A DNA stretch of 61,904 nucleotides from Desulfobacterales bacterium (GTDB taxonomy: Bacteria > Desulfobacterota > Desulfobacteria > Desulfobacterales > UBA2156). The notes under the pieces are model-generated. The model was not told the origin of the DNA, searched no databases, and worked only from the letters and a program-made list of their open reading frames with translations. Below, in pieces: positions 5,335-51,160 of the stretch. The stretch is taken from the NCBI GenBank assembly GCA_027025555.1, contig JALVQN010000211.1:1-61904 (forward strand), written 5' to 3'. Position 1 is the stretch's first letter, and the number at the start of each line of letters is the position of its first letter. The position numbers were made by a program, and so were the translations under genes.

Positions 5335-5412
5335 CCCAAAATCAGGCCCAATGTTCCGCCCTTGATAATAAAATATACTATTATATCCAAAAGTTACAAA
5401 TTTCCGGCATCC

Positions 5413-5842: not shown

Positions 5843-5844
5843 CC

Positions 5845-7011: not shown

Positions 7012-7122
7012 AGAGTGTTGGGGAGGGGATTTTCCGGCCTGCGGATGAAAATCAACCAAGGATACATAAGGCTTAGGAACTGTTTCAGAACCAAAAAGGG
7101 ACAAGAGAAAGGAGGCCGTACC

Positions 7123-12191: not shown

Positions 12192-13780
12192 GACTTCACG
12201 AGATAATTGCGCATCATGCCCATGTCCTCATGTTCTAAATTGTGGCAGTGGTAGAGGAACAGGCCCGGGTAATCGTCGAAGCCGACCAAGATTTTGACGC
12301 TTTCACCGGGCATCAGGAGGACCGTGTCTTTCCACCCCGCATCCACGTAGCCTTCGTGCCGTAACCCGCTGCGTGCCAGGACCCGGAATTGCTTGCCGTG
12401 CAGGTGCATGGGATGGGGCGTTTGCATCATCGGCATCATGCCGCCTCCGGTGTTATGAAACTCCCAGATTTCCCGGGAACCCAACCGAACGATCTCGTCA
12501 CCCGCCACATCTTCCATCTGAAATACCCGCCCGTTGATGGACCATTGCATGTGTCGCCCGGTGAGATGGAATCGTCGCGGACGATGGACATTGTCCGCCA
12601 GGTCCGGACGGGGAGGCTCAATCTCTGCAAGCCTGGGCGGCAGCGTGGAGCGCTTCTTCACTTTTTGCGTCACCTTGATTTTGAAGACGGGAAATCGGGC
12701 GCCAAGCAAAAGGGTTTGGCGTGTCCCCCTTCTCCCGGACATCCTCATCCCCCGGCCCATGCGGCCGCTTCCCATTGGCCCGCCGTCAAAAGGAAGGCTC
12801 ACGAGGGCGCTTTCATATCCCACCGGCGCCCCGCTGAAATCCCTCCAGAGTTCGATACGTTCGCCCGGGGCCAAAAATACATAGGCACGGGAAACCGGCT
12901 TTTCAAGGAGGCCTCCATCCGTGCCGATGACGGTCAGGGGCCGGCCGTCTCCCCATGCCAGGCGAAAGATCCGAGAGTTGGAGCCGTTTAACAGGCGCAA
13001 CCGGTAGGCGGTGGTTGATACGGGCAATGTAAAATCGGGCATGCCGTTGATCAGGATCGAATCGCCCAAAAAACCGGTCATCTGTTCCATCCCATGTCCT
13101 GAGAGGTATACCAGCTGGTTGTCGCCGTCAAAGGTGCGATCTTGAATGACCAAAGGCACGTCATAGCCCCCGTCGGGCAACCCCAGGGATCGCTCTTCTT
13201 CATCGGAAACAAGCAAAAGGCCGGCCAGACCTTGATAAACCTGGACCCCGGTGCGTCTGTGGGGATGCGGATGATACCAATAGGTGCCGGCGCGGTTCTT
13301 CACTTCAAACTCATAGAGATAGGACCGGCCGGAGGGAACCACAAAGCGTGGATGGCCATCCATGATGGCAGGCACATGGAGGCCGTGCCAATGGATAATC
13401 GATTTTTCGAAAATGGCGTTTTCAAAACGGATCCGTATTTTCTCGCCCTGACGCACTTTAATGACGGGTCCCAGATAGCTTTCGGGAAGTGGCACCACCC
13501 GGGATTGATCCCCCTTGTGAACCATGGCGTCGTAGCGCCAAATCCGCGTTCGCTCTCCGGGGAAAAGGGCCAGTTCATCGGGGTGGGCCGTCATGGAAAT
13601 ATCCAGATCCGGAATGAACTTTTTCTTTGAAGCGGTGTTGGGATTTCGTGCAGCAGCAAGAGGATCAAGAAAAGGCAGAAAGCTGCCGGTCATCAAACCC
13701 AGTGCGCCGAAGCCGGCCAGTTTCAGAAATTGCCTTCGATCCTTTTCGGTTTTCATCCGCAAGCGCGTGGCGTTTTTCAT
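12188..13780 (-). CDS. TAT-exported multicopper oxidase
   Basis: Twin-arginine signal (DRRQFLKLAGFG). Copper motifs IHWHGLH, WYHPHPH, HPMHLHG and HCHNLEHEDMGMM. Start moved to MKNATR (13780) because the -24/-12 element overlaps the upstream ATG at 13831. Confidence 0.85.
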   Translation of the reverse strand: MKNATRLRMKTEKDRRQFLKLAGFGALGLMTGSFLPFLDPLAAARNPNTASKKKFIPDLDISMTAHPDELALFPGERTRIWRYDAMVHKGDQSRVVPLPESYLGPVIKVRQGEKIRIRFENAIFEKSIIHWHGLHVPAIMDGHPRFVVPSGRSYLYEFEVKNRAGTYWYHPHPHRRTGVQVYQGLAGLLLVSDEEERSLGLPDGGYDVPLVIQDRTFDGDNQLVYLSGHGMEQMTGFLGDSILINGMPDFTLPVSTTAYRLRLLNGSNSRIFRLAWGDGRPLTVIGTDGGLLEKPVSRAYVFLAPGERIELWRDFSGAPVGYESALVSLPFDGGPMGSGRMGRGMRMSGRRGTRQTLLLGARFPVFKIKVTQKVKKRSTLPPRLAEIEPPRPDLADNVHRPRRFHLTGRHMQWSINGRVFQMEDVAGDEIVRLGSREIWEFHNTGGGMMPMMQTPHPMHLHGKQFRVLARSGLRHEGYVDAGWKDTVLLMPGESVKILVGFDDYPGLFLYHCHNLEHEDMGMMRNYLVKS

Positions 13781-13839
13781 GGGTCTCTCCCCTGGCAAAA
13801 AGTTGTTAATTTTAATTTTCCTGTCGCACACCCCAAAAG

Positions 13840-27655: not shown

Positions 27656-29053
27656 ATGAAGCAGTCGTTTGGCAAAACGGGGATATTGTGCCTTGTCCTG
27701 CTTTTGACAGGGATGGCTGCTTACGCCTTGGCGCAAACCCAGGAGACCAACTTGGCGCCAAAGGAGTTGGTCATCAAGAGGGGCTTCACCCAGAAGGCGT
27801 TGCAATGCATCGAATGCCATGCCAAGAAGATGCCGGGCATTGTTGAGAGCTGGCGCTCCAGCAGGATGAGCCATGCGGGGATTTCATGCTACGATTGCCA
27901 CGTGGTGAAGAAAAGCTCCCCCATGGCCAGCCAGTGTGAGGGTCTCAAGGGGACCGATACCTTCATCTCTCCCATGGTCTCCTCCAAGACCTGCTCCCGT
28001 TGCCACCCCCAGGAAGTGGAACAATTCCTGAAAAGCGGCCACGGGGCCCTGGCCAGTTCGGCGGTGATGGACCCCAAAAGGGGCAAACTCATCAAGCTCA
28101 TGTACTATTTTGAAGGGTGCGGATTCATGGACAAACTCAATCCCGCCGACCTCATCGCCACCGGGAAGACCCCTGAGGGACAGCCCAACTACATCCGCGC
28201 TTCCAGGGCCGCCGGCTGCCAGATGTGCCACGGCACCCTGGTGGAACTGGGCCCGGACAACAAGCCCATCAATGAGACCTGGCCGGCCGGCGTGGGGACC
28301 CGCTATCCGGACGGCTCCATCGGGACCTGTACGGTGTGCCACGAGCGCCACACGTTTTCCATCGCCGATGCCAGGAAACCGGAGGCCTGCGGTGCCTGCC
28401 ACCTGGGGCCGGATCACCCCAACATCGAGATTTACCTGGAGAGCAAGCACGGGCAGCTCTTCCAGGTTCAGGGGGAACACTGGAAGTTCGACAGCCCGCC
28501 GGGGGCATGGGAGCCCGGGGATTATCTGGCGCCCACCTGTGCCACGTGCCATATGAGCGGCATTGGAGACCTGGCCACCACCCACAACGTCCAGGAACGG
28601 TTGAAGTGGGACCTGATGCATAAAAAGAGCGTGATCCGCAGCGGTAACCGGGGAGACGGTGCAAAGGGCGAGCCGTTGATGCGCCGGGTCTGTGCCAACT
28701 GCCACAGCAAAACCCACACCAACGTCCAGCGGGCCACCCTGGACCACATGGTGGAGCTTTACAACAAACAGTGGGCGGCAGCCGTGAAGATGAAAGAGGA
28801 TCTGGCCAAGAAGGGACTTTTGAAGAAGGATCCATGGAAGGATCCTTTCCTGGAGCTCACGTATTACCTGTGGCATCACACCGGAAGAAGGGCCCGCCAG
28901 GGGGCCGCCATGAATGCGCCCGATTATGCGCATTGGCACGGGACCTTCCAGATGTTCCAGGTGCTCAAGGATATGGAAGATATCTATAACTATCGGGTCA
29001 AAAACAACAAGATCGAGGATCTCAGCCCGGTGATGAGCACGGCGCCGTACTAA
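27656..29053 (+). CDS. periplasmic octahaem cytochrome c, hydroxylamine-oxidoreductase (HAO)-like
   Basis: Sec signal peptide. Eight CXXCH motifs (CIECH, CYDCH, CSRCH, CQMCH, CTVCH, CGACH, CATCH, CANCH). Paired with a NapC/NrfH-type gene, as in epsilon-type Hao systems. Confidence 0.8.
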
Positions 29054-31276: not shown

Positions 31277-33532
31277 TTATTCCGGAAAGGCCTCCCCGGA
31301 GTTGACGGTTACGGGTTTGAGCTTTGCGATGGCTTTCAGCATGAAAAGGAGCAACGCCCCGGATCCGATGATGATGAGAAAGTCCGGAATTATCCGGGTC
31401 TGGCCGAGGAACTGGACCATGTCCTTTTGCCAGAATGCGTTGGAGCGGGCATGCCAGAATCCATATCGAATGTTGTCCAGGACATGGAGAATGCCGTTGG
31501 GCAACAGTGTGCCGGCGAACATGATGAACAGGCCGATGTTGGTTCCCCAGAACGCCACCTTTAAAAGCTTGGTGTTCCAGCCTTCATCGGTAACCAGGCC
31601 CCGCATGGAGAACAGAAGGAGACCGATGGCCAGCAGGCCATAAGTGCCGAACAGGGCGGTGTGGCCGTGGTTCACGGTGAGATAGGTGGCGTGCTCGAAG
31701 TAGTTGACCACCGGGGTGGTAATGGAGAGCCCCATCACGCCTGCGCCCAAAAACTCCCAGGCCACCGACGCCATGAGGAACATGAGGGGATAGCGGTAAG
31801 GAAAGTTGCTTCCCGCTTTCACCAGGGCCTTTTGGCTGTGCCAGACTTCTGCCAGCAAAAGTAAAATGGGAACCGGTTCCAAAGAGGAAATGGTGGAACC
31901 GAGCGCCAGCCAGAAGGACGGTTCCCCGAACCAATAGTAATGATGGCCCACACCGATGATACCGGAAGAAAGGGCCAGGGCCACGGTGAAATAAACGGTC
32001 CGGAGCCCTGCTTTCAGTTCCACCAGGCCGAGGTTCACCATCACGAAGACGATGGCCGCTGCAGCAAAGAACTCAAAGGCGCCTTCCACCCAGGTGTGCA
32101 CCACCCACCACCGCCAGAAGTCCGCGATGGTGAGATGGGTTTTGGGGTTGTAAAAGAGGCCGAAACAGAAAAAGCCCACCACCGCAATGCCGGAATAGGT
32201 CAGGAAATGGGGCAGGCCCCACTTGTCCTGGCCGGCGGCGAAGTGGCCTTTCAAGGCCCGAACCACCAAGAAAAGCCAGATGACCAGGCCCACCAGGAGG
32301 AGAATCTGCCAGAGCCTGCCGATCTCAAGGAATTCCCACCCCTGATGCCCCAGCCAGAACCAGAGGTCCCCGATGAGGCCTTTGATGCCCAGCACTTCAC
32401 CCACAAGGCTTCCCAGGGCCACCACCACCACGGCCACAAAGAGGACATCCACCAAAAACCCCTGGCCTTTCGGCTCTTTCCCGCCCACACGCGGTGCCAC
32501 GAAAAGGGTCATGCCGATCCAGGCCGTGGCGATCCAGAAGACGGCCAGCTGGAGATGCCAGGTCTTGGCCCAGTTATAGGGAATGAACTTGGCGATGGTA
32601 TCAAAACCGTAGAAGGAATCCGGATGCACCGTGTAATGGGCCATCAGTCCCCCCATGTTGACCTGGAGGAAGAAAAGTGCCGCCACCACCAGGAAGTATT
32701 TGGCGGTCTTTCTCTGGCTGGGGGAGATCCCGGCCGCTGCCAGGGCCTGGGCCGGTTCAGGCTGATACGGCAGAGCCCCCCGGTTGAACTGGTACTTGTG
32801 ATAGAGGAAGATCATGAGCCCCAGGCAGACGCCGAAGGCCACCAGGGAAATGGCGGACCACACCAGGGATTTTCCCGACACCCGGTTTCCCACATCCGGA
32901 TCGTGGGGCCAGTTGTTGGTATAGGTATGATCGTCGCCGGGACGGGTGGTTCCGGCCGCCCATGCGGTCCAGAAGAAAAAATCGGCCAGGTCCGTAAGCT
33001 CCTGGGAGTCCTGGATGGTTCCGGCCCGGATGGTGCCGCCCTTTTCGCCGTAAGTAAAAAGGGCATCATAAAACTTCCGGTTCTCCATGAAGGCGTATTC
33101 CTGGAGGGGAGTGAGGGTCAAGGTGTCTGTATGCTTATCATAGGCATTGGTTTTGATTTGCCGGATGACCGTGGCGTCCACGGCGCCCTTGACATGGTCT
33201 TCCAGGCTCGGATAGGGGGCCTTATACTTGTCTTGGGCCAGCTTTTCCCGCATGGTGATGCCCATGTTGTGGAGCGCCTGGGCTGTAAAGTCGGGCCCCC
33301 GGTAGGTGCCGTGGCCCCAGACGCTGCCCAGGTCCATGAGCCCGTACTTTTGCCAGACGCTTTGGCCGGACAAGATGTGTTCCCTGTCCGTCAAGACCGT
33401 GCCTTTTGTTGAGATCACCTTCCCGGGATAGGGCGGCAGGTCCTTGGTGGTGAAAAAGTACCCGATCAGTGCCACCGCAATGGCCCCGAAAATGGCGATG
33501 AGAAAATAGTTGCGAAGCCCTTTGCTGATCAT
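31277..33532 (-). CDS. norZ: quinol-dependent nitric oxide reductase (qNOR, NorZ/NorB-long)
   Basis: About 750 aa. N-terminal TM plus a periplasmic extension, then a 12-TM haem-copper-oxidase-like core (WGHGTY, VNHGHTALFG, GVGHHYYW). Start set at MISKGL (33532), behind an AAGGAGG RBS. Confidence 0.9.
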   Translation of the reverse strand: MISKGLRNYFLIAIFGAIAVALIGYFFTTKDLPPYPGKVISTKGTVLTDREHILSGQSVWQKYGLMDLGSVWGHGTYRGPDFTAQALHNMGITMREKLAQDKYKAPYPSLEDHVKGAVDATVIRQIKTNAYDKHTDTLTLTPLQEYAFMENRKFYDALFTYGEKGGTIRAGTIQDSQELTDLADFFFWTAWAAGTTRPGDDHTYTNNWPHDPDVGNRVSGKSLVWSAISLVAFGVCLGLMIFLYHKYQFNRGALPYQPEPAQALAAAGISPSQRKTAKYFLVVAALFFLQVNMGGLMAHYTVHPDSFYGFDTIAKFIPYNWAKTWHLQLAVFWIATAWIGMTLFVAPRVGGKEPKGQGFLVDVLFVAVVVVALGSLVGEVLGIKGLIGDLWFWLGHQGWEFLEIGRLWQILLLVGLVIWLFLVVRALKGHFAAGQDKWGLPHFLTYSGIAVVGFFCFGLFYNPKTHLTIADFWRWWVVHTWVEGAFEFFAAAAIVFVMVNLGLVELKAGLRTVYFTVALALSSGIIGVGHHYYWFGEPSFWLALGSTISSLEPVPILLLLAEVWHSQKALVKAGSNFPYRYPLMFLMASVAWEFLGAGVMGLSITTPVVNYFEHATYLTVNHGHTALFGTYGLLAIGLLLFSMRGLVTDEGWNTKLLKVAFWGTNIGLFIMFAGTLLPNGILHVLDNIRYGFWHARSNAFWQKDMVQFLGQTRIIPDFLIIIGSGALLLFMLKAIAKLKPVTVNSGEAFPE

Positions 33533-33608
33533 GGCAACCTCCTTTTTTGAAAGGTTTGAATGCATTGCGCTTTTTCCGCCCCAGTGCCCATGACGCCCTG
33601 GTCGCGGT

Positions 33609-39881: not shown

Positions 39882-41249
39882 TCAAGCGCGGAATCGATTC
39901 GCCTGGATTCCGTATTTTTTCATGCGGTTCCATACCGTGACCCGGCAGACACCCAGGATCCGGGCCGCCTGAGACTGGTTTCCTTTGGCCTCCCGGAGCG
40001 CTTCAATGAGCGCTTCCTTATCTTTAAAATCATTTTCTTTTTTGGCCCCTGCACCCTTTCTTTTGTCAACGGGTTGCTTGGGGAGGTGCTCCAGGGTCAG
40101 GGGCCCCTTGTCGGCCAAAACAAAGGCGTACTCCAGGGTGCTTTTCAGCTCCCTGACGTTTCCCGGCCAGGAATATTCCATGAGGGCCTCCATGGCCGCG
40201 CGGTGAATCCCGGTGACCGGCTTTTGGGTCTTTTCTTGAAGTCGGCGGATGAAGGTATCCACCAAAAGGGGAATGTCTTCAATGCGTTCCCGCAACGGGG
40301 GCAGGTGAATGGGAATCACGTTGATGCGGAAAAAAAAGTCTTCCCTGAAGAGGTTCTGTTCGATCAATGCCGCAAGGTTCTTATTGGTGGCCGTGATGAT
40401 CCGGACATCCACGGGAATGGGGCGATGATCCCCCACCCGCTCGATTTGTTTGGATTCCAGCACATTGAGCAGTTTGACCTGAACGGAAAGGGGCACATCC
40501 CCGATTTCATCCAGGAAGAGATCCCCGCCATGGGCCGCCTCGAACCGGCCGAGGCGATGGCGGTAAGCCCCGGTAAACGCCCCTTTGATGTGCCCGAAGA
40601 GTTCGCTTTCCAAAAGGGACTCATTCAATGCCGCACAGTTGAGCTGGATGAAAGGGCCCTCCCGTCGCGTTCCCAGCCGGTGGATGGCTTGGGCCACCAA
40701 GTCCTTCCCGGTGCCGCTCTCTCCGTACACAATGACCGGCGCATCACTGCGGGCCGCCCTTTGGATCATTTCAAAGACCTGTTTCATGGCAGGGGATTTC
40801 CCCACAATCCCGCAGAATTGGTCCCCACATTCCAGCTGGCGGGAAAGCTGTTCGATTTTTTCATCCAGACGGAATACTTCCGAAATATCGGTGAAGGTTT
40901 CCACGGCCCCCAGCGTCTTGCCGTCGGGCCCGGTCAGAAGGGAGGCGTTTTTGAGGATGTGGAGGTAACCGCCATCCTTTTTGATGATGGCACACCGTTT
41001 TTTATCCTGTTCGCCATGACGGAACAGGGCGCACCAGTTGTCATTTTCCTTTGTTCGGAAGGTTTCGCAGGCGTCACATCGCAGCAGGGTGCACGGCCTT
41101 CCGATGACTTCTTCGGCACGGTATCCCGTGAGGCGTTCAAACGCCTCGTTGATCATGAGGATGGTCCCATCGGTACCCACCACCAGGAGCCCCTCATTCA
41201 AGGTGTTGATGATTTGCTCCAGGTAGCGATTGATTTCCGTTTCATTCAT
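39882..41249 (-). CDS. sigma54-dependent activator with N-terminal PAS domain
   Basis: PAS domain (LNEGLLVVGTDGTILMINEAFERLTGY) with several Cys. Walker A (GESGTGKD), GAFTGA motif and a C-terminal Fis-type HTH. Divergent from the TusA operon. Confidence 0.9.
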   Translation of the reverse strand: MNETEINRYLEQIINTLNEGLLVVGTDGTILMINEAFERLTGYRAEEVIGRPCTLLRCDACETFRTKENDNWCALFRHGEQDKKRCAIIKKDGGYLHILKNASLLTGPDGKTLGAVETFTDISEVFRLDEKIEQLSRQLECGDQFCGIVGKSPAMKQVFEMIQRAARSDAPVIVYGESGTGKDLVAQAIHRLGTRREGPFIQLNCAALNESLLESELFGHIKGAFTGAYRHRLGRFEAAHGGDLFLDEIGDVPLSVQVKLLNVLESKQIERVGDHRPIPVDVRIITATNKNLAALIEQNLFREDFFFRINVIPIHLPPLRERIEDIPLLVDTFIRRLQEKTQKPVTGIHRAAMEALMEYSWPGNVRELKSTLEYAFVLADKGPLTLEHLPKQPVDKRKGAGAKKENDFKDKEALIEALREAKGNQSQAARILGVCRVTVWNRMKKYGIQANRFRA

Positions 41250-41384: not shown

Positions 41385-41400
41385 TGGCATCAATCTTGCT
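41385..41400 (+). promoter_or_regulatory. sigma54 (-24/-12) promoter candidate
   Basis: TGGCATcaatcTTGCT with canonical spacing. The predicted start site near 41410 excludes the ATGs at 41360 and 41405 and favours the ATG at 41438. Confidence 0.6.
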
Positions 41401-41437: not shown

Positions 41438-41665
41438 ATGGTTTCAAGAACGAAGATCGATCTCATCGGCAATGCCCGGCCCATTTGCCTTTTAAAGTGT
41501 AAAAGCACCTTAAATCAAATGAATACCGGGGACACCTTGGAGGTCTTGCTGGGGGATCCCGGAGTGGTCCACGAACTGATCGCCATTATCAACCGCTCTT
41601 CGGACCGGGTGGTCCAATGGGTGCAGGAGGGGGATCACTTCAGGATCCAGATTGAAAAGGGATAG
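41438..41665 (+). CDS. TusA/SirA-like small sulfur-carrier protein (non-canonical Cys motif)
   Basis: 75 aa. GNARPICLLKCKSTLNQMNTGDTLEVLLGD...RIQIEKG has TusA-like length and layout, but the Cys context is PICLLK rather than CPxP. Confidence 0.6.
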   Translation: MVSRTKIDLIGNARPICLLKCKSTLNQMNTGDTLEVLLGDPGVVHELIAIINRSSDRVVQWVQEGDHFRIQIEKG

Positions 41666-41691: not shown

Positions 41692-42633
41692 ATGGAAATC
41701 AACAGACGATCCTTTCTCAAATTTTCCGGTGCGTTGGCGGCCGGCTCCGCGCTGAAGCCCACCGTTGTCCATGGGGGAAAGCCTCCAGCGCCGCCTGAGG
41801 ATGCCTTGGGATGCCTGGTGGACACCACCCTTTGTGTGGGATGCAGGAAGTGTGAACAGGCCTGCAACGCGCGTCACCATCTTCCCAAGCCGAAGGAATC
41901 CTTCGAAGAGATGACCGTTTTGGAAAACGAACGGCGGATGGACGAGACGTCGTACACGGTGGTGAACAAATACTACCCCAAACAGATCGGCACCCTCACC
42001 TGGCGGACCCGGCCCACCTTCGTCAAGTTCCAGTGCATGCATTGCAATGATCCTTCCTGTGTGTCGGCATGTATCGTGGGGGCCCTCACCAAGCAGGAGA
42101 ACGGGGCCGTGATCTATGATCCGAAAAAGTGCATCGGGTGCCGCTACTGCATGGTGGCATGTCCTTTTCAGGTCCCGGCCTATGAATACCGCAATGCCCT
42201 GACCCCCCAGGTGAGGAAGTGCACCTTTTGTTTCCAGTATGTGAAAGAGGGGGGGCTCCCGGCCTGTGCCCAGGTGTGTCCCAGGGAGGTGATCACCTTC
42301 GGCAAAAGGGCCGATTTGCTGCGCCTGGCCAAGTGGAAGATGAAGAGCAACCCGGGCAAGTATGTGGATCATATCTACGGGGAAAAGGAGGTGGGAGGGA
42401 CCTCGTGGCTCTACCTGGCCTCCGAACCCTTTGAGTCCATCGGCTTTCCCAAGCTCGGGACCAAAGCCCCGCCGAGACTCACGGAATCCATTCAGCACGG
42501 TCTTTTTCAATATTTTGCGGCGCCCATCGGCCTGTACGCACTTTTGGGAGGGATCATGTGGTTTACCGGTTACCTGAAACATTCCCACCGGGGCACCCCC
42601 CAAGAGACCCATGAGAAAGGAGACGCATCATGA
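41692..42633 (+). CDS. TAT-exported 4x[4Fe-4S] ferredoxin-type subunit (HybA/DsrO/NrfC family) with C-terminal TM anchor
   Basis: Signal peptide INRRSFLKFSGALAAG. Cys clusters CVGCRKCEQAC, CMHCNDPSCVSAC, CIGCRYCMVAC and CTFC...CAQVC. C-terminal helix APIGLYALLGGIMWFTGYL. Confidence 0.85.
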   Translation: MEINRRSFLKFSGALAAGSALKPTVVHGGKPPAPPEDALGCLVDTTLCVGCRKCEQACNARHHLPKPKESFEEMTVLENERRMDETSYTVVNKYYPKQIGTLTWRTRPTFVKFQCMHCNDPSCVSACIVGALTKQENGAVIYDPKKCIGCRYCMVACPFQVPAYEYRNALTPQVRKCTFCFQYVKEGGLPACAQVCPREVITFGKRADLLRLAKWKMKSNPGKYVDHIYGEKEVGGTSWLYLASEPFESIGFPKLGTKAPPRLTESIQHGLFQYFAAPIGLYALLGGIMWFTGYLKHSHRGTPQETHEKGDAS

Positions 42634-45600
42634 ACCTCCATGAAGAGGCCGCTCCGGTTCAAGAGAAGTTCCTGACCCCCGGGGTCATGGTCCTGCTGGG
42701 CGTCATGGGCGTGGGTGCCGCGTTTATCCTTACCCGCTTCCTTTTCGGCATCGGGAAGGTGGCCAACTTGAACAACCAGTTTCCCTGGGGCATCTGGATC
42801 GGCATCGATGTGGCTTCCGGCGTGGCCCTGGCCGCCGGCGGCTTCACCACCGGCGCCATCGCCTATGTCTTCAACCGGGACCAGTTTCATGCGGTCATTC
42901 GGCCGGCCCTGCTCACCGCCATGCTGGGCTATACGTTTGTGGTCCTGGGACTGGTGGTGGATATCGGAAGATACTGGAATATCACCAGCCCTGTTTTTCA
43001 TCATAACGGCAACTCGGTCCTTTTCGAAGTGGCCATGTGCGTGATGATCTATCTCCACGTCCTTTATATCGAGTTCATCCCCATTGTGGTGGAACGCTTC
43101 AAGGGCCGGGTGGCCCTGCCGGGGCCCCTTGCCGTCCTCAACGGGCCCATCGAGGCCCTCCTCGGCTTTGCCGACAAGGTCCTTTCCAAGATCATGTGGG
43201 TCTTCATCATCGCCGGGATCGTCCTTTCCTGCCTGCACCAATCCAGCCTGGGGTCTTTGATGCTGATCGCTCCGTACAAGGTCCATCCCTTGTGGTACAC
43301 GCCCATCCTGCCCCTCCTTTTCCTGCTGAGCGCCTTTGCCGCCGGCTATCCCATGGTGGTCTTCGAATCGATCCTCGCCGCCAAATCGTTCGACCGGCGA
43401 CCCGAGATGGAGGTGCTCACCCCCCTTGCCCGGTACATGCCGGTGCTCATGGGGCTCTACCTCGTTTTCAAGCTGGGAGACATGGTGGCCCGCGGCACGT
43501 ATGTGTATCTGCTCGACGGCACCTATCAGACGAATTCCTTCATCGTGGAGGTTCTCTTCGGCGTCATATTCCCTTTTGTGTTGTTGTTGTTCAAAAGGGT
43601 GCGGAAGTCCGCGGGATGGCTCTTTTTCGCCTCCACGCTCTGGGTCCTGGGCATCTTGTTGAATCGCATCAATGTCTTCGTGGTCAGTTATACCCCTCCC
43701 TATAAAATCGTATCCTATTTTCCGGCCCTGGGAGAGGTGTTCATTACGGCGGGCCTGATTTCCGGGCTCATGTTCCTGTATCGGGTCTTTGTGTTCATCT
43801 TCCCGGTGCTGGGGAAACAACCGAAAAAGATGTCTCCCACGGCCCTGGGCATGGTCATTGTCATGGGGGTCATGGTCTTCAATGGAAGGGCCCTGGGAAA
43901 GGAAATGGATGCGGCCTCCAAGCGTCCCATGACCCTTCACGCTGCCTCGGTGCCCTCCATCAAGGACGCCCCCAAGGTTTTCATCCTCGAAAGCGCTGTG
44001 ATTAAGAAATACAGCGACCTGTACGAACCGGTGCGGTTTATGCACAGCAAGCATGCCAACGTGCTGGGGGATTGTTCCATCTGCCACCACCGGATGCCCC
44101 GGGAAGAAGGAGACACGTACGGCGCACCGGTGAAAATGGAACAGCTTCGGGCCATGAAAAAGGTGCCGGTGGCATGTTCGGTGTGTCATGGGGATCCCTT
44201 TAATCCCAGACAACTCCAGGTGCCGGGGCTGAAGGGCGCCTATCACCGGCTTTGCATGGACTGCCACAAAGAGGCCGAACAGGTTCCCCATGTGCGGGGT
44301 CCGGTGTTGTACAGCGCCATGGTCCGGGGGCCCGTGGCCCGCACTTTGGACACCCGGGCCCCCACGGATTGTTTGGCCTGTCATGCCAAGAAGGTGCCGG
44401 ACCACACGAAACTGGTGACGCTTGAGGGACAGGTGGACGCCCAGGCCGTGACGAAAAATTGCCTTTCCTGTCATCGAGCCGAAGGCGAGGCCCTCTTGAA
44501 GACTTCCCATTGGAAATGGCGGGGTCCCTCCCCCTACACCATCGGCCACGAAAAACGCACCGATCTGGGGAAACACTCCAATACCATCAACAATTTTTGT
44601 ATCAACCTCAACGGCAACTGGCCCCGCTGCACCTCCTGTCACATCGGATACGGCTGGAAGGATGCCGACTTTGACTTCAAGGATATGTCGAAGATCGACT
44701 GCCTGGTGTGCCACGACACCACCGGCACCTACAAGAAGGCCCCGGCGGGTGCGGGATTTCCGAAAAAGGACGTGGATCTGGTGAAGGTGGCCAAACACGT
44801 GGGCCGGCCCAGCCGGGCCACCTGCGGCATGAACTGCCATTTCAGGGGCGGCGGCGGACCCGGGGTCAAGCACGGGGAATTGGGCCCGACCCTCCTGATG
44901 GGGACCTCCCAAAACGACGTCCATATGGGTGTGGACAGGAAAGGGATGAATTTCAAGTGCCAGGATTGTCACAAGACCCGGAACCATATGATCTCCGGGA
45001 GAAGCATTTCCATTCCGGCTTCGGAAGGGGACCTGTCCTGCGAGTACTGCCATACGGACCGCCCGCATATCGGGGCCGATCCGGTGGACCATCATTTGAA
45101 CCGGCATACCAAGCATGTGGCCTGCCAGACCTGCCATATCCCCCTTTATGCCAAAAATGCCCCCACCAAAATCTACTGGGATTGGTCCACCGCGGGTCAG
45201 GACCGGAAAGTGGAAAAGGATCCATACGACATGCCCACGTATCACAAGAAAAAGGGGAGCTTTAAATGGAAACAATCGGCCAAGCCCAGGTACTTTTGGT
45301 ACAACGGCACCGTGAAACGCTATGTGCTGGGGGATCGCATCAACGAAAAGGGGGTTACGGAGCTGACCAAGCCTGTGGGAAGCCCGGCGGATCCGGCATC
45401 CCGGATCTACCCCTTCAAGATCCATTCCGGGAAACAGATCAGTGATGCCGTGTACAAATATTTGATTACCCCCAAGCTTTACGGAGGGTTTTGGAAGCAC
45501 TGGGACTGGGATAAAGCAGCCAGAGACGGCATGGCGGCGGCGGGGTTGAAATACAGCGGCGAATATGAGTTCGTGGATACGGTCATGTACTGGGGGTTGA

Positions 45601-45902
45601 CCCACGAGGTCCTTCCCAAAGAGGAGGCCCTTTCGTGTGCCCATTGTCACCGGTCCCTCTCAAAAGCGCCCTACTGCGGCCGGTGCCACCAGGAAGCGCC
45701 GGGACAGGATTTCAAGAAGTTGGCCACCAGGGGGATCGACTTTAAGGCCCTGGCCGAGCAGGGCAAGGACGTGGCGGCGCTCATCGGGACCACCGATTAT
45801 CTCGATTTTAAGGCCCTGGGATATGCCGGGGATCCCGTCGAGACAGGGGGCCGGTTCAAGACATTGCCGTTGAGCCGCCGCCAGGTCACCGCGTTAAAAT
45901 AG
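42630..45902 (+). CDS. fusion protein: NrfD/PsrC-type polytopic membrane module plus a 13-haem periplasmic cytochrome c (tetrahaem c3-like region plus octahaem tetrathionate-reductase-like region)
   Basis: 1090 aa. The first roughly 400 aa are polytopic and NrfD-like. The remainder carries 12 CXXCH motifs and one CX3CH (CGMNCH). The central part (SHWKWRG, CTSCHIGYGW, CLVCHDTTGTYKK, HFRGGGGPGVKHG) resembles OTR-family octahaem cytochromes. Its ATG overlaps the upstream stop (ATGA). Confidence 0.85.
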   Translation: MNLHEEAAPVQEKFLTPGVMVLLGVMGVGAAFILTRFLFGIGKVANLNNQFPWGIWIGIDVASGVALAAGGFTTGAIAYVFNRDQFHAVIRPALLTAMLGYTFVVLGLVVDIGRYWNITSPVFHHNGNSVLFEVAMCVMIYLHVLYIEFIPIVVERFKGRVALPGPLAVLNGPIEALLGFADKVLSKIMWVFIIAGIVLSCLHQSSLGSLMLIAPYKVHPLWYTPILPLLFLLSAFAAGYPMVVFESILAAKSFDRRPEMEVLTPLARYMPVLMGLYLVFKLGDMVARGTYVYLLDGTYQTNSFIVEVLFGVIFPFVLLLFKRVRKSAGWLFFASTLWVLGILLNRINVFVVSYTPPYKIVSYFPALGEVFITAGLISGLMFLYRVFVFIFPVLGKQPKKMSPTALGMVIVMGVMVFNGRALGKEMDAASKRPMTLHAASVPSIKDAPKVFILESAVIKKYSDLYEPVRFMHSKHANVLGDCSICHHRMPREEGDTYGAPVKMEQLRAMKKVPVACSVCHGDPFNPRQLQVPGLKGAYHRLCMDCHKEAEQVPHVRGPVLYSAMVRGPVARTLDTRAPTDCLACHAKKVPDHTKLVTLEGQVDAQAVTKNCLSCHRAEGEALLKTSHWKWRGPSPYTIGHEKRTDLGKHSNTINNFCINLNGNWPRCTSCHIGYGWKDADFDFKDMSKIDCLVCHDTTGTYKKAPAGAGFPKKDVDLVKVAKHVGRPSRATCGMNCHFRGGGGPGVKHGELGPTLLMGTSQNDVHMGVDRKGMNFKCQDCHKTRNHMISGRSISIPASEGDLSCEYCHTDRPHIGADPVDHHLNRHTKHVACQTCHIPLYAKNAPTKIYWDWSTAGQDRKVEKDPYDMPTYHKKKGSFKWKQSAKPRYFWYNGTVKRYVLGDRINEKGVTELTKPVGSPADPASRIYPFKIHSGKQISDAVYKYLITPKLYGGFWKHWDWDKAARDGMAAAGLKYSGEYEFVDTVMYWGLTHEVLPKEEALSCAHCHRSLSKAPYCGRCHQEAPGQDFKKLATRGIDFKALAEQGKDVAALIGTTDYLDFKALGYAGDPVETGGRFKTLPLSRRQVTALK

Positions 45903-45961: not shown

Positions 45962-46294
45962 ATGTTCAAAAAAGGGGCAATCATTTTCTTGGCAGTGTTG
46001 TTGGTGGGGGTTTACATCGGCCTGGTCTTGGCGGCCGAGAAGAAGGGGAATGATCGAAAAGGAAAGTATCTTTTCCGGAAAAATTGCCGGTCTTGCCACG
46101 TGGAAGGGGGCAGTGCAAAGGAGCTCAGCCCGGTGAGCAAGACCCAGGCCGAATGGGAGAAGGCGTTTAAGGAGTACGAAAGCCTTTCCTGCAAGGACGA
46201 GTGGCGCAAACTTTCCGATCAGGACAGACTCGACATTTTTACTTATCTTCATGAGCATGCATACGATTCGCCGTCCCCCATCAAGTGCAGTTAG
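45962..46294 (+). CDS. membrane-anchored monohaem cytochrome c
   Basis: 110 aa with an N-terminal hydrophobic helix and a single CRSCH motif. Confidence 0.7.
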   Translation: MFKKGAIIFLAVLLVGVYIGLVLAAEKKGNDRKGKYLFRKNCRSCHVEGGSAKELSPVSKTQAEWEKAFKEYESLSCKDEWRKLSDQDRLDIFTYLHEHAYDSPSPIKCS

Positions 46295-46342: not shown

Positions 46343-48535
46343 ATGGCCAAACGATCCCAAAGAGCGGTGAGCCGCCGGGGATTCCTGAAGGCTTCCACGG
46401 CGGCGGCCGCGGCGGTGTCCCTGGGAAGGGGAAAGGTGCTCCATGCCCTGGTACCCGCCGGGAAGGCGACGCCCAGGACAGGGCCCAAAGATGTGTATTC
46501 GGCTTGCGACATGTGTTTCAACAAATGCGGCCTGATCGCCCGGGTGGATGATTTGGGGGTGGTTCGAAAACTCGATCCCAACCCCAAATTCCACAAGTCC
46601 CGGGGGATGCTGTGTGCCCGGGGGAATGCGGGCGTCCGGCAGCTTTATGATCCGGATCGCCTGAAATATCCCCTGTTGAGGAAGGGCAAGCGGGGAGAGG
46701 GGCGCTGGCAACGCCTTTCATGGGATCAAGCCCTGGATTATGCCGCCGAAAAGCTCCAAGCCATCGGTGAGAAGTATACCCGTTGCGGTGTCCTGTTCAT
46801 GGCCGGCACCGACCTGCAATCCCAGTTTGTCCATCGATTTGCCGAGGTGTTCGGCTCATACAACGTGATTTCCCATGAAAGCAACTGTCTTTTGAGCCGA
46901 AACCGCGCTTTTTTGGATACCTTCGGGGAGGTGCCCGTCCCGGATGTTTTGAATTGTAAATATCTGATCATGGCCGGCGCCAACCGGTTTGAAGCCCTTG
47001 TGACCCCGGACAGCATCGACCTGATGACCGCCTTAAAAAAGGGGAGCAAGCTGGTGGTCCTCGATCCTCGGTTCACCAAGACCGCAGCCCTGGCCACCGA
47101 GTGGCATCCCATCCGGCCGGGGACCGACATGGCCTTTTTTTTGGCCGTGGCCCATGTGCTCATTGAAGAAGGCCTTTACGATAAAGCGTTTGTGGCCCAA
47201 AAGACCTTTGGATTCGAAAGGCTTGCCCCCCACATCAGGCAGTATCCGCCGGAATGGGCCGAAAAGGAGTGTGAGATTCCGGCAGCCCACATCCGGCGGA
47301 TCGCCAGGGAACTGGCGGCGGCGGCACCGGCGGCCATGGTCTATCCGGGAAGACGCAGTTCGGACTACGAGAATTCCACCCAGATCCGCCGTGCTTTCGC
47401 CATCGTCAACGCCCTGTTGGGGAATTGGGACCGTCCCGGGGGACTGACGGTCGCCCGCAAGGTCCCCTTGAAGAAGCCCCCCTATGATGCGCCTTTCTAT
47501 GAAGACAATCCGGACGGCCGGATCGATGAAGGCAGGTCTCTCATGATGTTCGGGGAAGAGGGGTCCTTCAAGCATGCCCGGGATGCGGTCATCGAAGGAA
47601 AGCCGTATCCGGTCAAGGGATTCTTCACGTACAAGACGAATCCCATGCAAACGGGCGCCAACCGAAAAAAGACGGTCCGCATGATCGAGACGCTCGATTT
47701 CATGCTCACCGTGGATATCGCCATGAGCGATACGGCGTGGATGGCCGACCTGGTCCTCCCGGCGCCCAGCTACCTGGAACGCCGAGATCCCGTATCGGCG
47801 TTGCAGGGAGCCTCGGCGTGCGCCTGTGTCATCACACGGGATCCGGTGGTAAAGCCCCTGTTTGAGGCCAAACCGGTGGTGTGGATCGTCGGCGAACTGG
47901 CCAAACGTTTGGGGCTGGGGGAATTTTTCGATTTTACCATGGATGCGTATCGAAAGGCCCAGTTGAAGAAGCTTCCCGGTGCCGAGGCGGCTTTGAAAAA
48001 AGACGGCGTGTACCATCACCCCGGAAAGCTCTACGGGGTCTATGAGGGCAAGCCTTTCAAGACCCTTTCCAAGAAGATCGAGTTGTACAACCAGCGTTAT
48101 GAAAAAGCCGGGATCGACCCCATGCCGGTCTATCGCCCGCCCAAACCGGTGCCCGACGGGCATTTCCGGCTGGTGGTGGGGCGCAGCGCGTATATCACCC
48201 AGGGATCGACCACCAATAATGTGCTTCTTCACGAACTCGTTCCCGAAAACACCTTGTGGCTTCACCCCAAACCGGCGCGTCGGCTCGGCATCCGACCCGG
48301 CGACTGGGTGGTGGTCTCCAGCAACGTGGGAACCCAGAGGCTGAAAGTCCGGGTCACCGAGGAAACAAGGGAAGATACGGTCTATATGGACTCAGGCTTT
48401 GGGGTCCTGTCCAAGGGCCTCACCCGCGTTTTCGGCAAAGGCGCCAGCATCGTGGAGATTCTGGAAGATTTCAATGATGAAATCTCCGGGAACATGGCCA
48501 TGCACGAGACCTTCGTCACCGTGAAACGGGGCTAA
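46343..48535 (+). CDS. TAT-exported molybdopterin oxidoreductase catalytic subunit, PsrA/PhsA/TtrA-like
   Basis: Signal peptide VSRRGFLKASTAAAAAVS. N-terminal FeS motif CDMCFNKCG...C. About 730 aa MopB architecture with a conserved Cys in HESNCLLSRN. Confidence 0.9.
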   Translation: MAKRSQRAVSRRGFLKASTAAAAAVSLGRGKVLHALVPAGKATPRTGPKDVYSACDMCFNKCGLIARVDDLGVVRKLDPNPKFHKSRGMLCARGNAGVRQLYDPDRLKYPLLRKGKRGEGRWQRLSWDQALDYAAEKLQAIGEKYTRCGVLFMAGTDLQSQFVHRFAEVFGSYNVISHESNCLLSRNRAFLDTFGEVPVPDVLNCKYLIMAGANRFEALVTPDSIDLMTALKKGSKLVVLDPRFTKTAALATEWHPIRPGTDMAFFLAVAHVLIEEGLYDKAFVAQKTFGFERLAPHIRQYPPEWAEKECEIPAAHIRRIARELAAAAPAAMVYPGRRSSDYENSTQIRRAFAIVNALLGNWDRPGGLTVARKVPLKKPPYDAPFYEDNPDGRIDEGRSLMMFGEEGSFKHARDAVIEGKPYPVKGFFTYKTNPMQTGANRKKTVRMIETLDFMLTVDIAMSDTAWMADLVLPAPSYLERRDPVSALQGASACACVITRDPVVKPLFEAKPVVWIVGELAKRLGLGEFFDFTMDAYRKAQLKKLPGAEAALKKDGVYHHPGKLYGVYEGKPFKTLSKKIELYNQRYEKAGIDPMPVYRPPKPVPDGHFRLVVGRSAYITQGSTTNNVLLHELVPENTLWLHPKPARRLGIRPGDWVVVSSNVGTQRLKVRVTEETREDTVYMDSGFGVLSKGLTRVFGKGASIVEILEDFNDEISGNMAMHETFVTVKRG

Positions 48536-48572: not shown

Positions 48573-49220
48573 ATGAAAAGCAAGCCTCATAAAAAATATG
48601 CCATCGTCATCGACACCTTCAAGTGTTTCGACTGCAAGGCATGCATGATCGCCTGTAAGGTGGAAAACAATGTCCCGGAGGGGTTCTGGCGGAACTGGGT
48701 CCGCCACACCGGAGGTGTCAAAGGCAGGCGCACCCAGTTTCAGCCCGGGCAGTGCATGCAGTGTGACGCACCTTCCTGTGTGGCGGCCTGCCCGGTGGGG
48801 GCCACCTATAAACAGGAAGACGGTCTGGTGGTCATCGATCCGGCAAAGTGTATCGGGTGCGGCAACTGTGTGACGGCATGCCCTTATGGGGCGCGCTACA
48901 GGAATCCCCTCAGCCATACGGCCGACAAGTGCGACTTTTGTGAACACCGCCTCAAACGGGGGGAAGAACCGGCCTGTGTGATCACCTGTCCCACCAAGGC
49001 CCGCATTTTCGGAGACCTCAACGATCCTGAAAGCCGGGTCAGCCGGTTGATGAAAGAGGAACGGCTGGTCCAGGTGATCAATCCCGTGTTCGATACCCGA
49101 CCGAACATCTATTATTGGGCCGGAACCCGCCTTCTGGACTGGCCCAAAATCCCCACCCTGCCGGGCGGGGTTCACATGCCGAAGGCGTTCTGGAAGACTC
49201 CCATGGAAGAACGGACCTGA
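48573..49220 (+). CDS. 4Fe-4S dicluster electron-transfer subunit, PsrB/PhsB-like
   Basis: Cys clusters CFDCKACMIAC, CMQCDAPSCVAAC, CIGCGNCVTAC and CDFC...CVITC. 215 aa. Confidence 0.9.
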   Translation: MKSKPHKKYAIVIDTFKCFDCKACMIACKVENNVPEGFWRNWVRHTGGVKGRRTQFQPGQCMQCDAPSCVAACPVGATYKQEDGLVVIDPAKCIGCGNCVTACPYGARYRNPLSHTADKCDFCEHRLKRGEEPACVITCPTKARIFGDLNDPESRVSRLMKEERLVQVINPVFDTRPNIYYWAGTRLLDWPKIPTLPGGVHMPKAFWKTPMEERT

Positions 49221-49257
49221 GCCGGACCACAACCCTAAAAAGAAAGGAGCTTACGTC

Positions 49258-50388
49258 ATGAGACGATGGAAAGGCACCCTTTGGCTGCCGCTGGCGGCCC
49301 TGGTGGTGGGCGCATTGCTCATGGGGTGCGCCGCCCCCCAAAAGACGGCAACCCCGGCAAAAGCAAAGCCCGAGTGGTGGTTCCACGACACGGTGAACAT
49401 CGACTTCGTGAAACAGTATGCCGTGATGCCCCAACCCAAGGGTGTCATGATCGTCGATGCCCGGCCGAAAAGGGCCAAGTACGACAAGGGGCACATTCCC
49501 ACGGCCGTCAGCATTCCGGCCAGGCAGTTCGACAAGTTCAAGGATCGGCTGCCCAAGGATAAGAAGACCCTTTTGATCTTCTACTGCGGGGGCCCCACCT
49601 GAAAGCTGAGTCATCAGGCCGCCAGGAAGGCGGTCAAGCTGGGATACACCCAGGTCAAGGTCTTTGCCGACGGTTTTCCGGCCTGGGAAAAAGACCCTGA
49701 AACCTATACGGTCGTGGAAATCAGTTGGCTTTTGGAAAAGATGAAAGCCAGGGTCCCCATGACCCTCGTCGATGCCCGGCCCAAGCGCGCCAAATATGAC
49801 AAGGGCCATATCCCGGGTGCCGTCAGCATTCCGGCCAGGCAGTTCGACAAGTTCAAGGATCGGCTGCCCAAAGACAAGAAAGCCCTCTTGGTCTTTTATT
49901 GCGGAGGCTATACCTGAAAGCTGAGTCATCAGGCCGCCAGGAAGGCGGTCAAGCTGGGATACACCCAGGTCAAGGTCTTTGCCGCCGGATACCCGGCATG
50001 GAAGAAGGCGGCGGCTGCAACGGCCGCCCCCGCACCGGTTACGATTAAAACCGGCACCGCCGAGGGCACCATTGACATCGCCTCTTTCGAAAAGATCCTG
50101 TCGGAAAATCCCAACAGCATCTATCTCATCGATGTCCGGGATCCGGAGGAATACAAGGCGGGCCATTTCAAGACGGCCGTCAATATTCCCGTGGATGATC
50201 TGGAAAAACAGATCAAGACACTGGCTGCGGACAAACCCATCGTCTTTGTTTGCGCCACCGGCGCCAGGAGCGGCGAATCCTTTTACATGGTTAAGGATCT
50301 TCGCCCTGATATCAAGGAGGTCTATTTCCTGGATGCCGAAGTGACCTATAACAAAGACGGATCCTATCGCATCAAAGCGCCCCAGTGA
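49258..50388 (+). CDS. periplasmic lipoprotein with three rhodanese domains; two in-frame TGA codons (49600, 49915) interpreted as selenocysteine
   Basis: AAAGGAG RBS and an LLMGC lipobox. ORF-track pieces 49258..49602, 49714..49917 and 50191..50388 share one frame. No other stops lie between them. Domains 1 and 2 read FYCGG(P/Y)T-TGA-KLSHQAARKAVKLGY. Domain 3 has an ordinary CATGARS loop. Confidence 0.7.
49617..49635 (+). other. candidate bacterial SECIS hairpin 1
   Basis: GGCCGCC-AGGAA-GGCGGTC (7-bp stem including one G-U pair) begins 14 nt after the TGA at 49600-49602. It lies inside a 73-nt stretch (49597-49669) that is repeated exactly. Confidence 0.45.
49932..49950 (+). other. candidate bacterial SECIS hairpin 2
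   Basis: Identical hairpin 14 nt after the TGA at 49915-49917. It lies inside 49912-49984, the exact copy of 49597-49669. Confidence 0.45.
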
Positions 50389-50424
50389 GGTATGAGGTCT
50401 GCCTCCCTCATTCCTCCCTTCCCA

Positions 50425-50462
50425 CCGAGACCCCTGGTCCGATCCGGTACCCGGGGTCTCGG
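50425..50462. terminator. 10-bp GC-rich hairpin between convergent genes
   Basis: CCGAGACCCC (50425-50434) pairs with GGGGTCTCGG (50453-50462). No clear T-tract. Sits between the rhodanese stop (50388) and the TorD-like stop (50489). Confidence 0.35.
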
Positions 50463-50488
50463 CCCTCCCCTGATCCTTTTCGGATCGC

Positions 50489-51160
50489 TCACGGGAGGTC
50501 GGTAGCGTTTGCAGGCGTGACAGCCGAAATAAACTGTAAAAAGGACAGAAGGATTGAGGCGGACAATCCATAGAAGGGACAGCCCGTTTCTCCTTCATTG
50601 AGTCTTGCAGTGACGACCGAAACCCATGGCAATAAGGCGCTCCGGGTAAAGGCTGCGGCTTCTTCCAGAAGATCCCCCCGGGAGCTCATCCATCCCTGCT
50701 CCAGGAGAAAGTAGAGATACTCCAGCTGGATGCACAGGTGGTCGGGCGGTTCCGTGCGGTCCTGGGCCACATCCAGCCCGGCCCCGGCCAGCCGTTTCTT
50801 CATTTCCACGGCCGGAGGTCCCATCATCAAGGCCTCTTCGCCCTCGTAACAAGAAGCGTACAGATAAGCGGAAAGAGGCCCCTTCCGATTCACGAAGAGC
50901 CGGACATAGGCCTCTTCCAAGTGCCCGAAGAGTAAATCAGGCTCTGAAAAGGCGTGGATTTCCTGTTGCGCGAGAGAAACGGCGTCGCGGGGAGAATAGG
51001 GGATATCGGCCTTCAACCGCACAAAGGGCGCCCACCAGCGGGAATCCAGGAGTGCTTTGCAAAAAAAGGGGTCAGGCCCCCAGAAGACGGCGCACATCTT
51101 GGAGAGGCCATCGAGGAAATCGGAGGGTCCTCCGGGAGTGGAAAAGCGTGCCTTTTTCAT
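50489..51160 (-). CDS. TorD/DmsD-family redox-enzyme maturation chaperone
   Basis: 223 aa. Family-like segments (EAYVRLFVN, PPDHLCIQLEYLYFLL). Convergent with the molybdoenzyme operon. Confidence 0.75.
   Translation of the reverse strand: MKKARFSTPGGPSDFLDGLSKMCAVFWGPDPFFCKALLDSRWWAPFVRLKADIPYSPRDAVSLAQQEIHAFSEPDLLFGHLEEAYVRLFVNRKGPLSAYLYASCYEGEEALMMGPPAVEMKKRLAGAGLDVAQDRTEPPDHLCIQLEYLYFLLEQGWMSSRGDLLEEAAAFTRSALLPWVSVVTARLNEGETGCPFYGLSASILLSFLQFISAVTPANATDLP

Follow-up and report, generated by a model that had tools for sequence, protein, structure and literature searches.

Does a gene broken by two in-frame TGA codons encode two selenocysteines, and what might such a protein do? The question is raised by a 61,904-nt stretch of DNA, here called the window, from a Desulfobacterales bacterium (assembly GCA_027025555.1, contig JALVQN010000211.1, positions 1 to 61,904 of the forward strand). 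At 49258-50388 (+) it carries a gene for a lipoprotein with three rhodanese domains, to which we give the working name Rhd3. A first-pass annotation, made from the DNA letters alone, had proposed a double selenoprotein that ends a Psr-like operon at the place where Wolinella has the sulfur transferase Sud. From comparisons of related sequences, we find that 49258-50388 is very probably a genuine selenoprotein gene with two selenocysteine (Sec) residues. The whole explanation that we favor, namely one gene for a two-Sec triple-rhodanese lipoprotein, with hairpin-directed UGAs and a role in sulfur metabolism, has in our estimate a probability of roughly 0.8.

The reading frame is intact apart from the two TGAs. 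It translates as 376 sense codons from the ATG at 49258, followed by the final stop at 50386-50388, and nothing interrupts it but the TGA codons at 49600-49602 (residue 115) and 49915-49917 (residue 220). The two contexts are FYCGGPT-U-KLSHQAARKAVKLGY and FYCGGYT-U-KLSHQAARKAVKLGY, with KLSH after each U. The loop Cys codons lie at 49585-49587 (C110) and 49900-49902 (C215), and each TGA follows five residues on, giving C-x4-U at both sites (C110/U115 and C215/U220). Pfam PF00581 matches Rhd3 in three stretches (E 2.3e-50), and all three domains have a Cys-bearing active-site loop after the central strand, which places the protein in the rhodanese family. Both TGAs fall inside domains 1 and 2, while domain 3 has the canonical loop VCATGARS, with C332 at 50251-50253. 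In domains 1 and 2 the Sec position is loop +5, the last loop residue ahead of the next helix, where ordinary rhodaneses and domain 3 have Arg. Translation and domain boundaries agree with the first-pass account of this gene: a single frame with two TGAs only, both within rhodanese domains in equivalent contexts, five residues past the loop Cys; a third domain with a normal CATGARS loop; and fragments that would be cut in mid-domain if the TGAs were stops.

Rhd3 is predicted to be a periplasmic, lipid-anchored protein. Its N-terminus, MRRWKGTLWLPLAALVVGALLMGC, begins with MRRWK and continues through a hydrophobic stretch to a lipobox, L-M-G-C24, which fits the bacterial lipoprotein pattern [LVI][ASTVIM][GAS]C. 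Among homologues G23 is invariant and C24 is conserved in at least 90%. The features of the gene, including a candidate bacterial selenocysteine insertion sequence (bSECIS) after each TGA, are as follows.

49258-50388, + strand: Rhd3 gene, 376 residues, with predicted Sec115 and Sec220 (frame, three PF00581 domains, full-length homologues)
49258-49329, + strand: signal peptide with lipobox L-M-G-C (Cys24), read from the sequence and from its conservation in homologues
49585-49587, + strand: domain 1 loop Cys110 (Cys in 120/120 homologues; TGA in no locus)
49600-49602, + strand: UGA-1, predicted Sec115 (column Cys in 117/120 homologues, mistranslated TGA in 3/120; TGA frequent in DNA)
49606-49643, + strand: bSECIS-like element 1, lower helix 49606-49611/49638-49643, upper helix 49619-49623/49629-49633, loop AGGAA
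49900-49902, + strand: domain 2 loop Cys215 (Cys in 120/120 homologues)
49915-49917, + strand: UGA-2, predicted Sec220 (same evidence as UGA-1)
49921-49958, + strand: bSECIS-like element 2, identical in sequence to element 1, upper helix 49934-49938/49944-49948
50251-50271, + strand: domain 3 canonical loop C-A-T-G-A-R-S, with Cys332 (Cys in 84/84 domain 3 loops examined, TGA in none)

Domains 1 and 2 are encoded by a direct repeat. Two copies of 241 nt (49451-49691 and 49766-50006, + strand) lie 315 nt apart and are 87% identical. From each TGA onward, the 60 nt compared, hairpin included, are identical between the two sites. Such identity is not seen in other genomes, where one site differs from the other. 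This contrast suggests recent gene conversion between domains 1 and 2 in the lineage of the window.

Homologues of Rhd3 have Cys at the TGA columns. A search of 5.8 billion proteins returned many full-length homologues of about 375 residues with 55-63% identity, and we read the column states in the best 120. At both columns, 117 have Cys and three have "W" (P0042, P0044, and P0108, from loci L001-L004; W at both columns in each), while the loop Cys of domains 1 and 2 is invariant. Protein conservation runs across and past both TGAs. No U-containing sequence occurs among these 120 proteins. For two of the "W" proteins, P0108 and P0042, the underlying DNA reads TGA at both columns, so the "W" predictions were made with a code in which TGA means Trp. 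Gene callers evidently picked this code for short contigs, which hides the selenoprotein. Cys or TGA at these two columns is the pattern that the first-pass annotation had suggested looking for. An AlphaFold model of a Cys homologue, P0001 (pLDDT 82), confirms the rhodanese fold and places a helix at residues 118-128, directly after the second Cys (C116); its residues 1-39 have low pLDDT. A Foldseek search with this model returned only generic multi-domain rhodaneses, at low TM-scores. In profile searches, domain 3 matches Sud of Wolinella (PDB 1qxn, E 2.8e-5), as well as rhodanese domains of persulfide and coenzyme A-disulfide reductases.

TGA at these columns is common in the related genes. 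Scanning one genome per GTDB species returned 80 loci, the best match being 65% identical. Nearly all come from metagenome-assembled genomes (MAGs) of Desulfobacterales, Desulfosarcinaceae or Desulfobacteraceae; Delta 1, 3, and 4, symbionts of Olavius, are among the sources. Together with the window and metagenome contigs, these loci give 82 genes for codon counts. The two columns hold TGA 75 times, TGC 84 times and TGT seven times (91 Cys sites). Writing U for TGA and C for Cys at the first and second site, 31 genes are UU, seven UC, one CU, and 41 CC. Besides the window, 30 further genes with two TGAs and eight with one come from independent MAGs, with the sequence downstream conserved, a recurrence at the same columns that goes far past what chance would give. 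In the loci examined, the loop Cys codon is never replaced by TGA, whether in domains 1 and 2 or in domain 3. The first-pass annotation had taken a tandem two-Sec lipoprotein at the end of a Psr-like operon to be an unusual case; such genes are not rare, as 39 of the 82 related genes, most of them from Desulfobacterales MAGs, carry at least one TGA. On a rough neighbor-joining tree, most UU genes, that of the window included, fall in one clade, and about five switches between Sec and Cys are needed. A two-TGA gene is present in L064 and L060 (Olavius Delta 1 / Delta 4 symbionts), and some genomes have two paralogues (L006 and L020 in one MAG; L054 and L050 in another).

The residue that precedes the column differs sharply between the two forms. 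It is Thr at 74 of the 75 TGA sites and at none of the 91 Cys sites, where Lys, Glu, Asp, His, Ala, Gln, and Asn are found. This Thr may reflect either the codon context that favors Sec insertion or the chemical needs of the site.

One of the loci, L037, holds a different gene of interest beside a Cys-form Rhd3. This gene (8825-9600, +) encodes a rhodanese domain with IVIYCRSFA-TGA-LRSS, again C-x4-U, and a thioredoxin-like part with CLAC follows. Its TGA lies at 9224-9226, and a hairpin with a GG loop occurs 18 nt past it. From these features, the rhodanese plus thioredoxin-like gene is probably a further selenoprotein gene. Sec at loop +5 thus probably recurs in the C-x4-C subclass of rhodaneses.

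A hairpin specific to TGA contexts follows each TGA. With the U of UGA as nt 1, an upper helix of 5 bp (nt 20-24 with 30-34, G+C) carries an NGGNN apical loop, so that nt 20-34 read CCGCC-NGGNN-GGCGG, and a lower helix joins nt 7-12 to nt 39-44. A loop 21 nt past the UGA with G at loop positions 2-3 matches the published bSECIS model. The five pairs of the upper helix are complete in 59 of 60 distinct TGA contexts versus 6 of 86 Cys contexts, and the loop GG is present in 60/60 versus 6/86. Mean folding energies are -10.7 kcal/mol for TGA contexts versus -4.4 kcal/mol for Cys contexts. In the alignment, pairing holds for 99.7% of the cells of the upper helix, and two of its pairs show compensatory changes from C-G to U-A; in a control with the partner slid by 1-3 columns, pairing falls to 22-59%. 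The lower helix is 90% paired, and its two pairs formed by third codon positions persist in 77-78% of Sec contexts versus 27-35% of Cys contexts. The loop also constrains the protein. Residue 123/228 is only Arg or Trp in Sec forms, since NGG is needed in the loop, and is any of many residues in Cys forms.

The proposal of two Sec residues at equivalent C-x4-U positions is therefore upheld by the Cys columns, by orthologues with TGA, by the TGA-specific hairpin, and by the use of TGA as a normal stop elsewhere in the window. There, TGA terminates 10 of the 29 Pfam-supported genes, that of Rhd3 included.

Rhd3 stands in an operon together with genes for redox proteins, two of them predicted to be exported by twin-arginine translocation (Tat). 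The neighboring features are listed here.

39882-41249, - strand: PAS / sigma-54 activator, divergent (Pfam; homologue near Rhd3 in 44/80 loci)
41385-41400, + strand: candidate sigma-54-type -24/-12 site, TGGCATcaatcTTGCT (one consensus mismatch; in the divergent intergenic region, ahead of the operon)
41438-41665, + strand: TusA-like sulfur-carrier gene, 75 residues, first of the operon (PF01206, 45.2 bits versus a cut-off of 28.6)
41692-42633, + strand: Tat-exported HmcB/HybA-like 4Fe-4S subunit (family searches)
42630-45902, + strand: fusion of NrfD/HybB-like, c7-like multihaem and OTR octahaem parts, 1090 residues (PF03916, PF11783, TIGR04315)
45962-46294, + strand: small monohaem cytochrome c, 110 residues, CRSCH (homologue near Rhd3 in 71/80 loci)
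46343-48535, + strand: Tat-exported PhsA/PsrA-like molybdopterin oxidoreductase (Pfam; PhsA model NF012032, 560 bits, below the cut-off of 694)
48573-49220, + strand: PsrB/TtrB-like 4Fe-4S subunit (180 bits, below the cut-off of 416)
50489-51160, - strand: TorD/NarJ-type chaperone, convergent with Rhd3 (PF02613; conserved downstream in PsrAB-type loci)

Sigma-54 motifs are not above chance in the window as a whole, and only the position of the site at 41385 is suggestive. The TusA-like gene is kept at the head of PsrAB-type loci. The fusion product encoded at 42630-45902 scores 524 bits against TIGR04315 (cut-off 375) over residues 591-1009, which makes it a member of the OTR family, and the NrfD-OTR fusion is 72-77% identical in related PsrAB-type loci. 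As for the parts of a Psr/Phs-type operon, the PhsA- and PsrB-model scores lie below their cut-offs, and an NrfD domain is present but fused to cytochromes and encoded upstream. The PsrA-like protein of the window occurs on only two metagenome contigs, one of them a 5.9-kb Logan contig (run SRR13622960) with an identical copy. In L037, from a long-read MAG, the PsrA-like gene (5308-7352, +) appears as two overlapping open reading frames (ORFs) in different frames, which is probably an assembly indel and not biology. Two long antisense ORFs, 49078-50598 (-) of 506 residues and 42570-45650 (-) of 1026 residues, face the rhodanese and NrfD-OTR genes; we take both as artefacts of 58% G+C because the genes on the opposite strand have strong family support. 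Elsewhere in the window are genes for a multihaem cytochrome (27656-29053, +), a NorB-type (quinol) nitric oxide reductase with a cytochrome c-like domain (31277-33565, -), and a multicopper oxidase (12188-13831, -), pointing to a broad periplasmic redox repertoire of the organism.

Rhd3 loci fall into two main arrangements. The first (20 loci) has the layout of the window, with PsrB-like genes and, where the flank reaches, PsrA-like genes upstream; 12 of these are UU, five CC, and three mixed or incomplete. The second (49 loci) has the order cytochrome c, rhodanese gene, stand-alone OTR, with 32 CC, 10 UU, and six UC. The one example of the second arrangement that we inspected, L060, has a PhsC-like cytochrome b after an OTR neighbor that scores 520 bits against TIGR04315. 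Overall, PsrB-like genes lie just upstream of Rhd3 in 20 of the 80 loci and PsrA-like matches occur in 18, while a cytochrome c is found in 71 and an OTR-type octahaem cytochrome in 64. As read from family matches, the partners common to both arrangements are the small cytochrome c, OTR, and a quinol-side membrane subunit, with PsrAB added in one clade. The first-pass picture, a Psr operon closed by a counterpart of Sud, survives in part: the PsrAB-type layout is real here and in 20 of the 80 loci, but the shared partners are cytochrome c and OTR. We have revised this picture because both arrangements share cytochrome c and OTR, and PsrAB belongs to one clade only.

A sulfur-directed mechanism can be proposed from these observations. 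The UGAs at residues 115 and 220 are very probably decoded as Sec, each directed by the stem-loop in the coding sequence that follows. The selenolate, at the N-terminus of a helix, would be the reactive nucleophile of a Cys/Sec pair, and the pair may take sulfane sulfur from a compound of the polysulfide, thiosulfate or tetrathionate type. The selenolate might then resolve the Cys persulfide into a selenylsulfide, with sulfide released; alternatively, the sulfur could be relayed to domain 3 and the reductases. Rhd3 would in this way handle substrate on behalf of the OTR-type octahaem cytochrome encoded beside it and, in this genome, also of the PhsA/PsrA-like molybdoenzyme. Electrons would leave the quinol pool by way of the NrfD/HmcB-like module and reach the reductases over the haems and the small cytochrome c. 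Pointers to function are the lipobox, the Tat-exported partners, the TusA-like gene at the head of the operon, the constant linkage with cytochrome c and OTR, and the match between domain 3 and Sud. We put a role of Rhd3 in sulfur transfer or as a redox partner at about even odds. It is doubtful that Rhd3 is an obligatory catalytic partner of OTR octahaem cytochromes instead of a mere sulfur carrier, and part of a new selenium-dependent respiratory module.

Rhodanese selenoproteins as such are already known. They turned up in the earliest selenoproteome surveys of prokaryotes and have been catalogued since 2004-2007; the first-pass statement that Sec-containing rhodaneses had been reported is borne out (PMC1088965, PMC1976440, PMC13188914). 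A study of Olavius lists eight genes for a "rhodanese-related sulfurtransferase" selenoprotein in the Delta 1 and Delta 4 symbionts (PMC1976440). A 2026 inventory gives five rhodanese forms: UxxS, UxxG (twice), CxU, and the two-Sec UxxxxU form TsoB (PMC13188914). None of these five, as listed there, combines three domains of which two carry a Sec. Rhd3 is thus a well-supported added case of a known kind of selenoprotein, and one that is common in its own lineage. It reaches no curated NCBIfam cut-off.

The forms most like Rhd3 differ from it in the number or position of Sec. The UxxS form (WP_010941598.1 of Geobacter sulfurreducens; Zhang & Gladyshev 2005, as cited in PMC13188914) also has a PF00581 domain, and its motif fits U-K-L-S of Rhd3, a comparison of listed motifs and not of aligned Sec positions. 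One Sec is listed for that form, whereas Rhd3 has two in tandem domains, a third domain with Cys, and a lipoprotein signal. TsoB (NF045694), a rhodanese/DsbD fusion-like protein with two Sec, is the best NCBIfam match of Rhd3, at 133 bits in two stretches. This is far below the cut-off of 805, and the DsbD part is absent from Rhd3, which therefore falls outside the family. The U-x4-U spacing of TsoB equals the C-x4-U spacing of Rhd3, and from the motifs, which were not aligned, the columns may coincide; in Rhd3, however, the first position is always Cys, and the two Sec lie in different domains. The LYCAU family (NF041203, CxU) has a single Sec-bearing rhodanese domain. Rhd3 scores 96.8 bits against its cut-off of 115 and is not a member, and the Sec of LYCAU lies two residues past the loop Cys, compared with five in Rhd3.

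The other relatives have no Sec in their rhodanese domains. The nearest solved structure by sequence (E 4.5e-12) is BH2092 of Bacillus halodurans (PDB 3o3w and 3nhv), which has the same C-x4-C loop, YCWGPAC. Unlike Rhd3, it is a single domain with Cys in place of Sec; it is a structural-genomics entry whose chain name gives no function. Sud of Wolinella succinogenes (PDB 1qxn) shares the rhodanese fold, and its match to domain 3 is weak. Sud is a periplasmic carrier of polysulfide sulfur that serves the Psr molybdoenzyme; it forms homodimers, has a single domain with one Cys, and lacks both Sec and a lipid anchor. Whereas Sud serves Psr, the neighbor of Rhd3 in both arrangements is the OTR octahaem cytochrome. 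YnjE of Escherichia coli (PDB 2wlx and 3ipo), 6mxv, 1yt8, and EanB likewise have several rhodanese domains per chain (fold search E 1e-9 to 1e-13), but TM-scores for YnjE and the other multi-domain rhodaneses are 0.24-0.30, and they have neither C-x4-C/U loops nor Sec. YnjE is periplasmic, and only its last domain is canonical. The ExtH/ExtKL (MccSep) system of Geobacter sulfurreducens combines a rhodanese-like lipoprotein with multihaem cytochromes, as at the Rhd3 locus, but its Sec is in the cytochrome and not in the rhodanese.

Several observations weigh against the explanation that we favor. The genes selA, selB, selC, and selD were not found in the 61.9-kb window, nor were other selenoprotein genes, in an all-frame scan for TGA-interrupted ORFs and Pfam searches of almost all long ORFs. 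When folded singly, the hairpin region shows no significant gain over shuffled sequences (z of about -1.2), and we rely on the comparative test for this reason. Rfam gave no relevant match, either in a gathering-threshold scan of the whole window or in a permissive scan of 49500-50100. Covariation in the upper helix is modest (five double-change cells), because the helix is nearly invariant, and some of the hairpin conservation is at the protein level because the hairpin lies in coding sequence. Finally, gene neighborhood is the only basis for the proposed substrate and for the proposed path of the electrons.

ARAGORN detected no tRNA of any kind in the window, nor any tRNA-Sec among 60 related loci. 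The lineage is one in which Sec use is the rule (PMC1976440, PMC8318568, PMC13326102), and the taxonomy fits: nearly all relatives are Desulfobacterales, among them the Olavius symbionts, a group whose selenoproteomes are very large and from which rhodanese selenoproteins have been catalogued (PMC1976440, PMC8318568). The window also encodes a radical SAM/SPASM protein at about 2530-3644 (+), which has no in-frame TGA and so is not of the known radical-SAM selenoprotein type. The mechanically called ORF at 1173-3644 overextends upstream of that gene, across a TrkH gene on the opposite strand.

The two-Sec protein might work on species of selenium or tellurium (selenite, Se(0), selenide) and not on sulfur, as in ExtH of the Geobacter selenite/tellurite-reduction cluster. 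The ext cluster does have rhodanese lipoproteins with multihaem cytochromes (PMC5877670), and MccSep, the Geobacter multihaem selenoprotein cytochrome, reduces both polysulfide and selenite (PMC13510729). Domain 3 of Rhd3 weakly matches the ExtH model NF040901, at 26.7 bits, but this is far under the cut-off of 200 bits. Moreover, the PhsA/PsrA-like, TusA-like, and OTR-family partners are all tied to sulfur compounds, and the Rhd3 family is widespread in marine sulfate-reducer lineages. We consider a selenium or tellurium substrate unlikely compared with a sulfur one.

A second possibility is that the UGAs also act as a switch on selenium supply, with scarce selenium giving a truncated product only. 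Two successive UGAs would be expected, on general grounds, to multiply the inefficiency of Sec insertion, and the paralogue pairs L006 + L020 and L054 + L050 would be compatible with such a switch. The truncated products, however, would have no complete rhodanese domain, and the sequence gives no pointer to a function for them. A regulatory use of the UGAs seems very improbable.

Still less credible is the reading of the TGAs as real stops in a decaying or split gene, with a 114-residue fragment and later pieces that are untranslated or separately initiated. Mechanical ORF calling does split the locus, into 49258-49602, 49714-49917, and later pieces, and Sec machinery is not visible in the window. 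Against this, about 30 other genes, 55-65% identical at the protein level, keep both TGAs and an undamaged conserved sequence past them, every fragment would end in mid-domain, and a TGA-specific hairpin follows each TGA. A pseudogene is excluded because both TGAs, and the sequence that follows them, are conserved in dozens of genomes.

The view that TGA codes here for one of the standard amino acids (Trp or Gly, by code 4 or 25 or by near-cognate read-through) has next to nothing left in its favor beyond the three public predictions with W at both columns: those calls are TGA in the DNA for both genes whose contigs were fetched, the hosts are Desulfobacterota with the standard code, and a different code is excluded because TGA ends 10 of 29 well-supported window genes, that of Rhd3 among them, and because homologues align Cys there and in no case Trp or Gly.

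The interest of a two-Sec triple-rhodanese lipoprotein lies in its mis-annotation, in the position of Sec beside Cys, and in the link to OTR. The family is systematically mis-called, in that gene callers break the gene or put Trp at the TGAs (three proteins), and no NCBIfam cut-off is reached. Selenoproteome counts and sulfur-cycle inventories of marine sulfate-reducer MAGs therefore probably miss it. Sec stands strictly beside the canonical rhodanese Cys, at loop +5 only, and never replaces it, which points to a two-residue Cys/Sec mechanism in the C-x4-C rhodanese subclass. The tight linkage with OTR offers a testable lead to the in vivo role of OTR octahaem cytochromes. If Rhd3 were an obligatory partner of OTR, which is doubtful, a selenylsulfide-forming rhodanese, a small cytochrome c, OTR, and a quinol-oxidizing membrane subunit would make up a periplasmic respiratory module for inorganic sulfur compounds. 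Such a module would occur widely among marine Desulfobacterales, and it would give the OTR family its physiological role.

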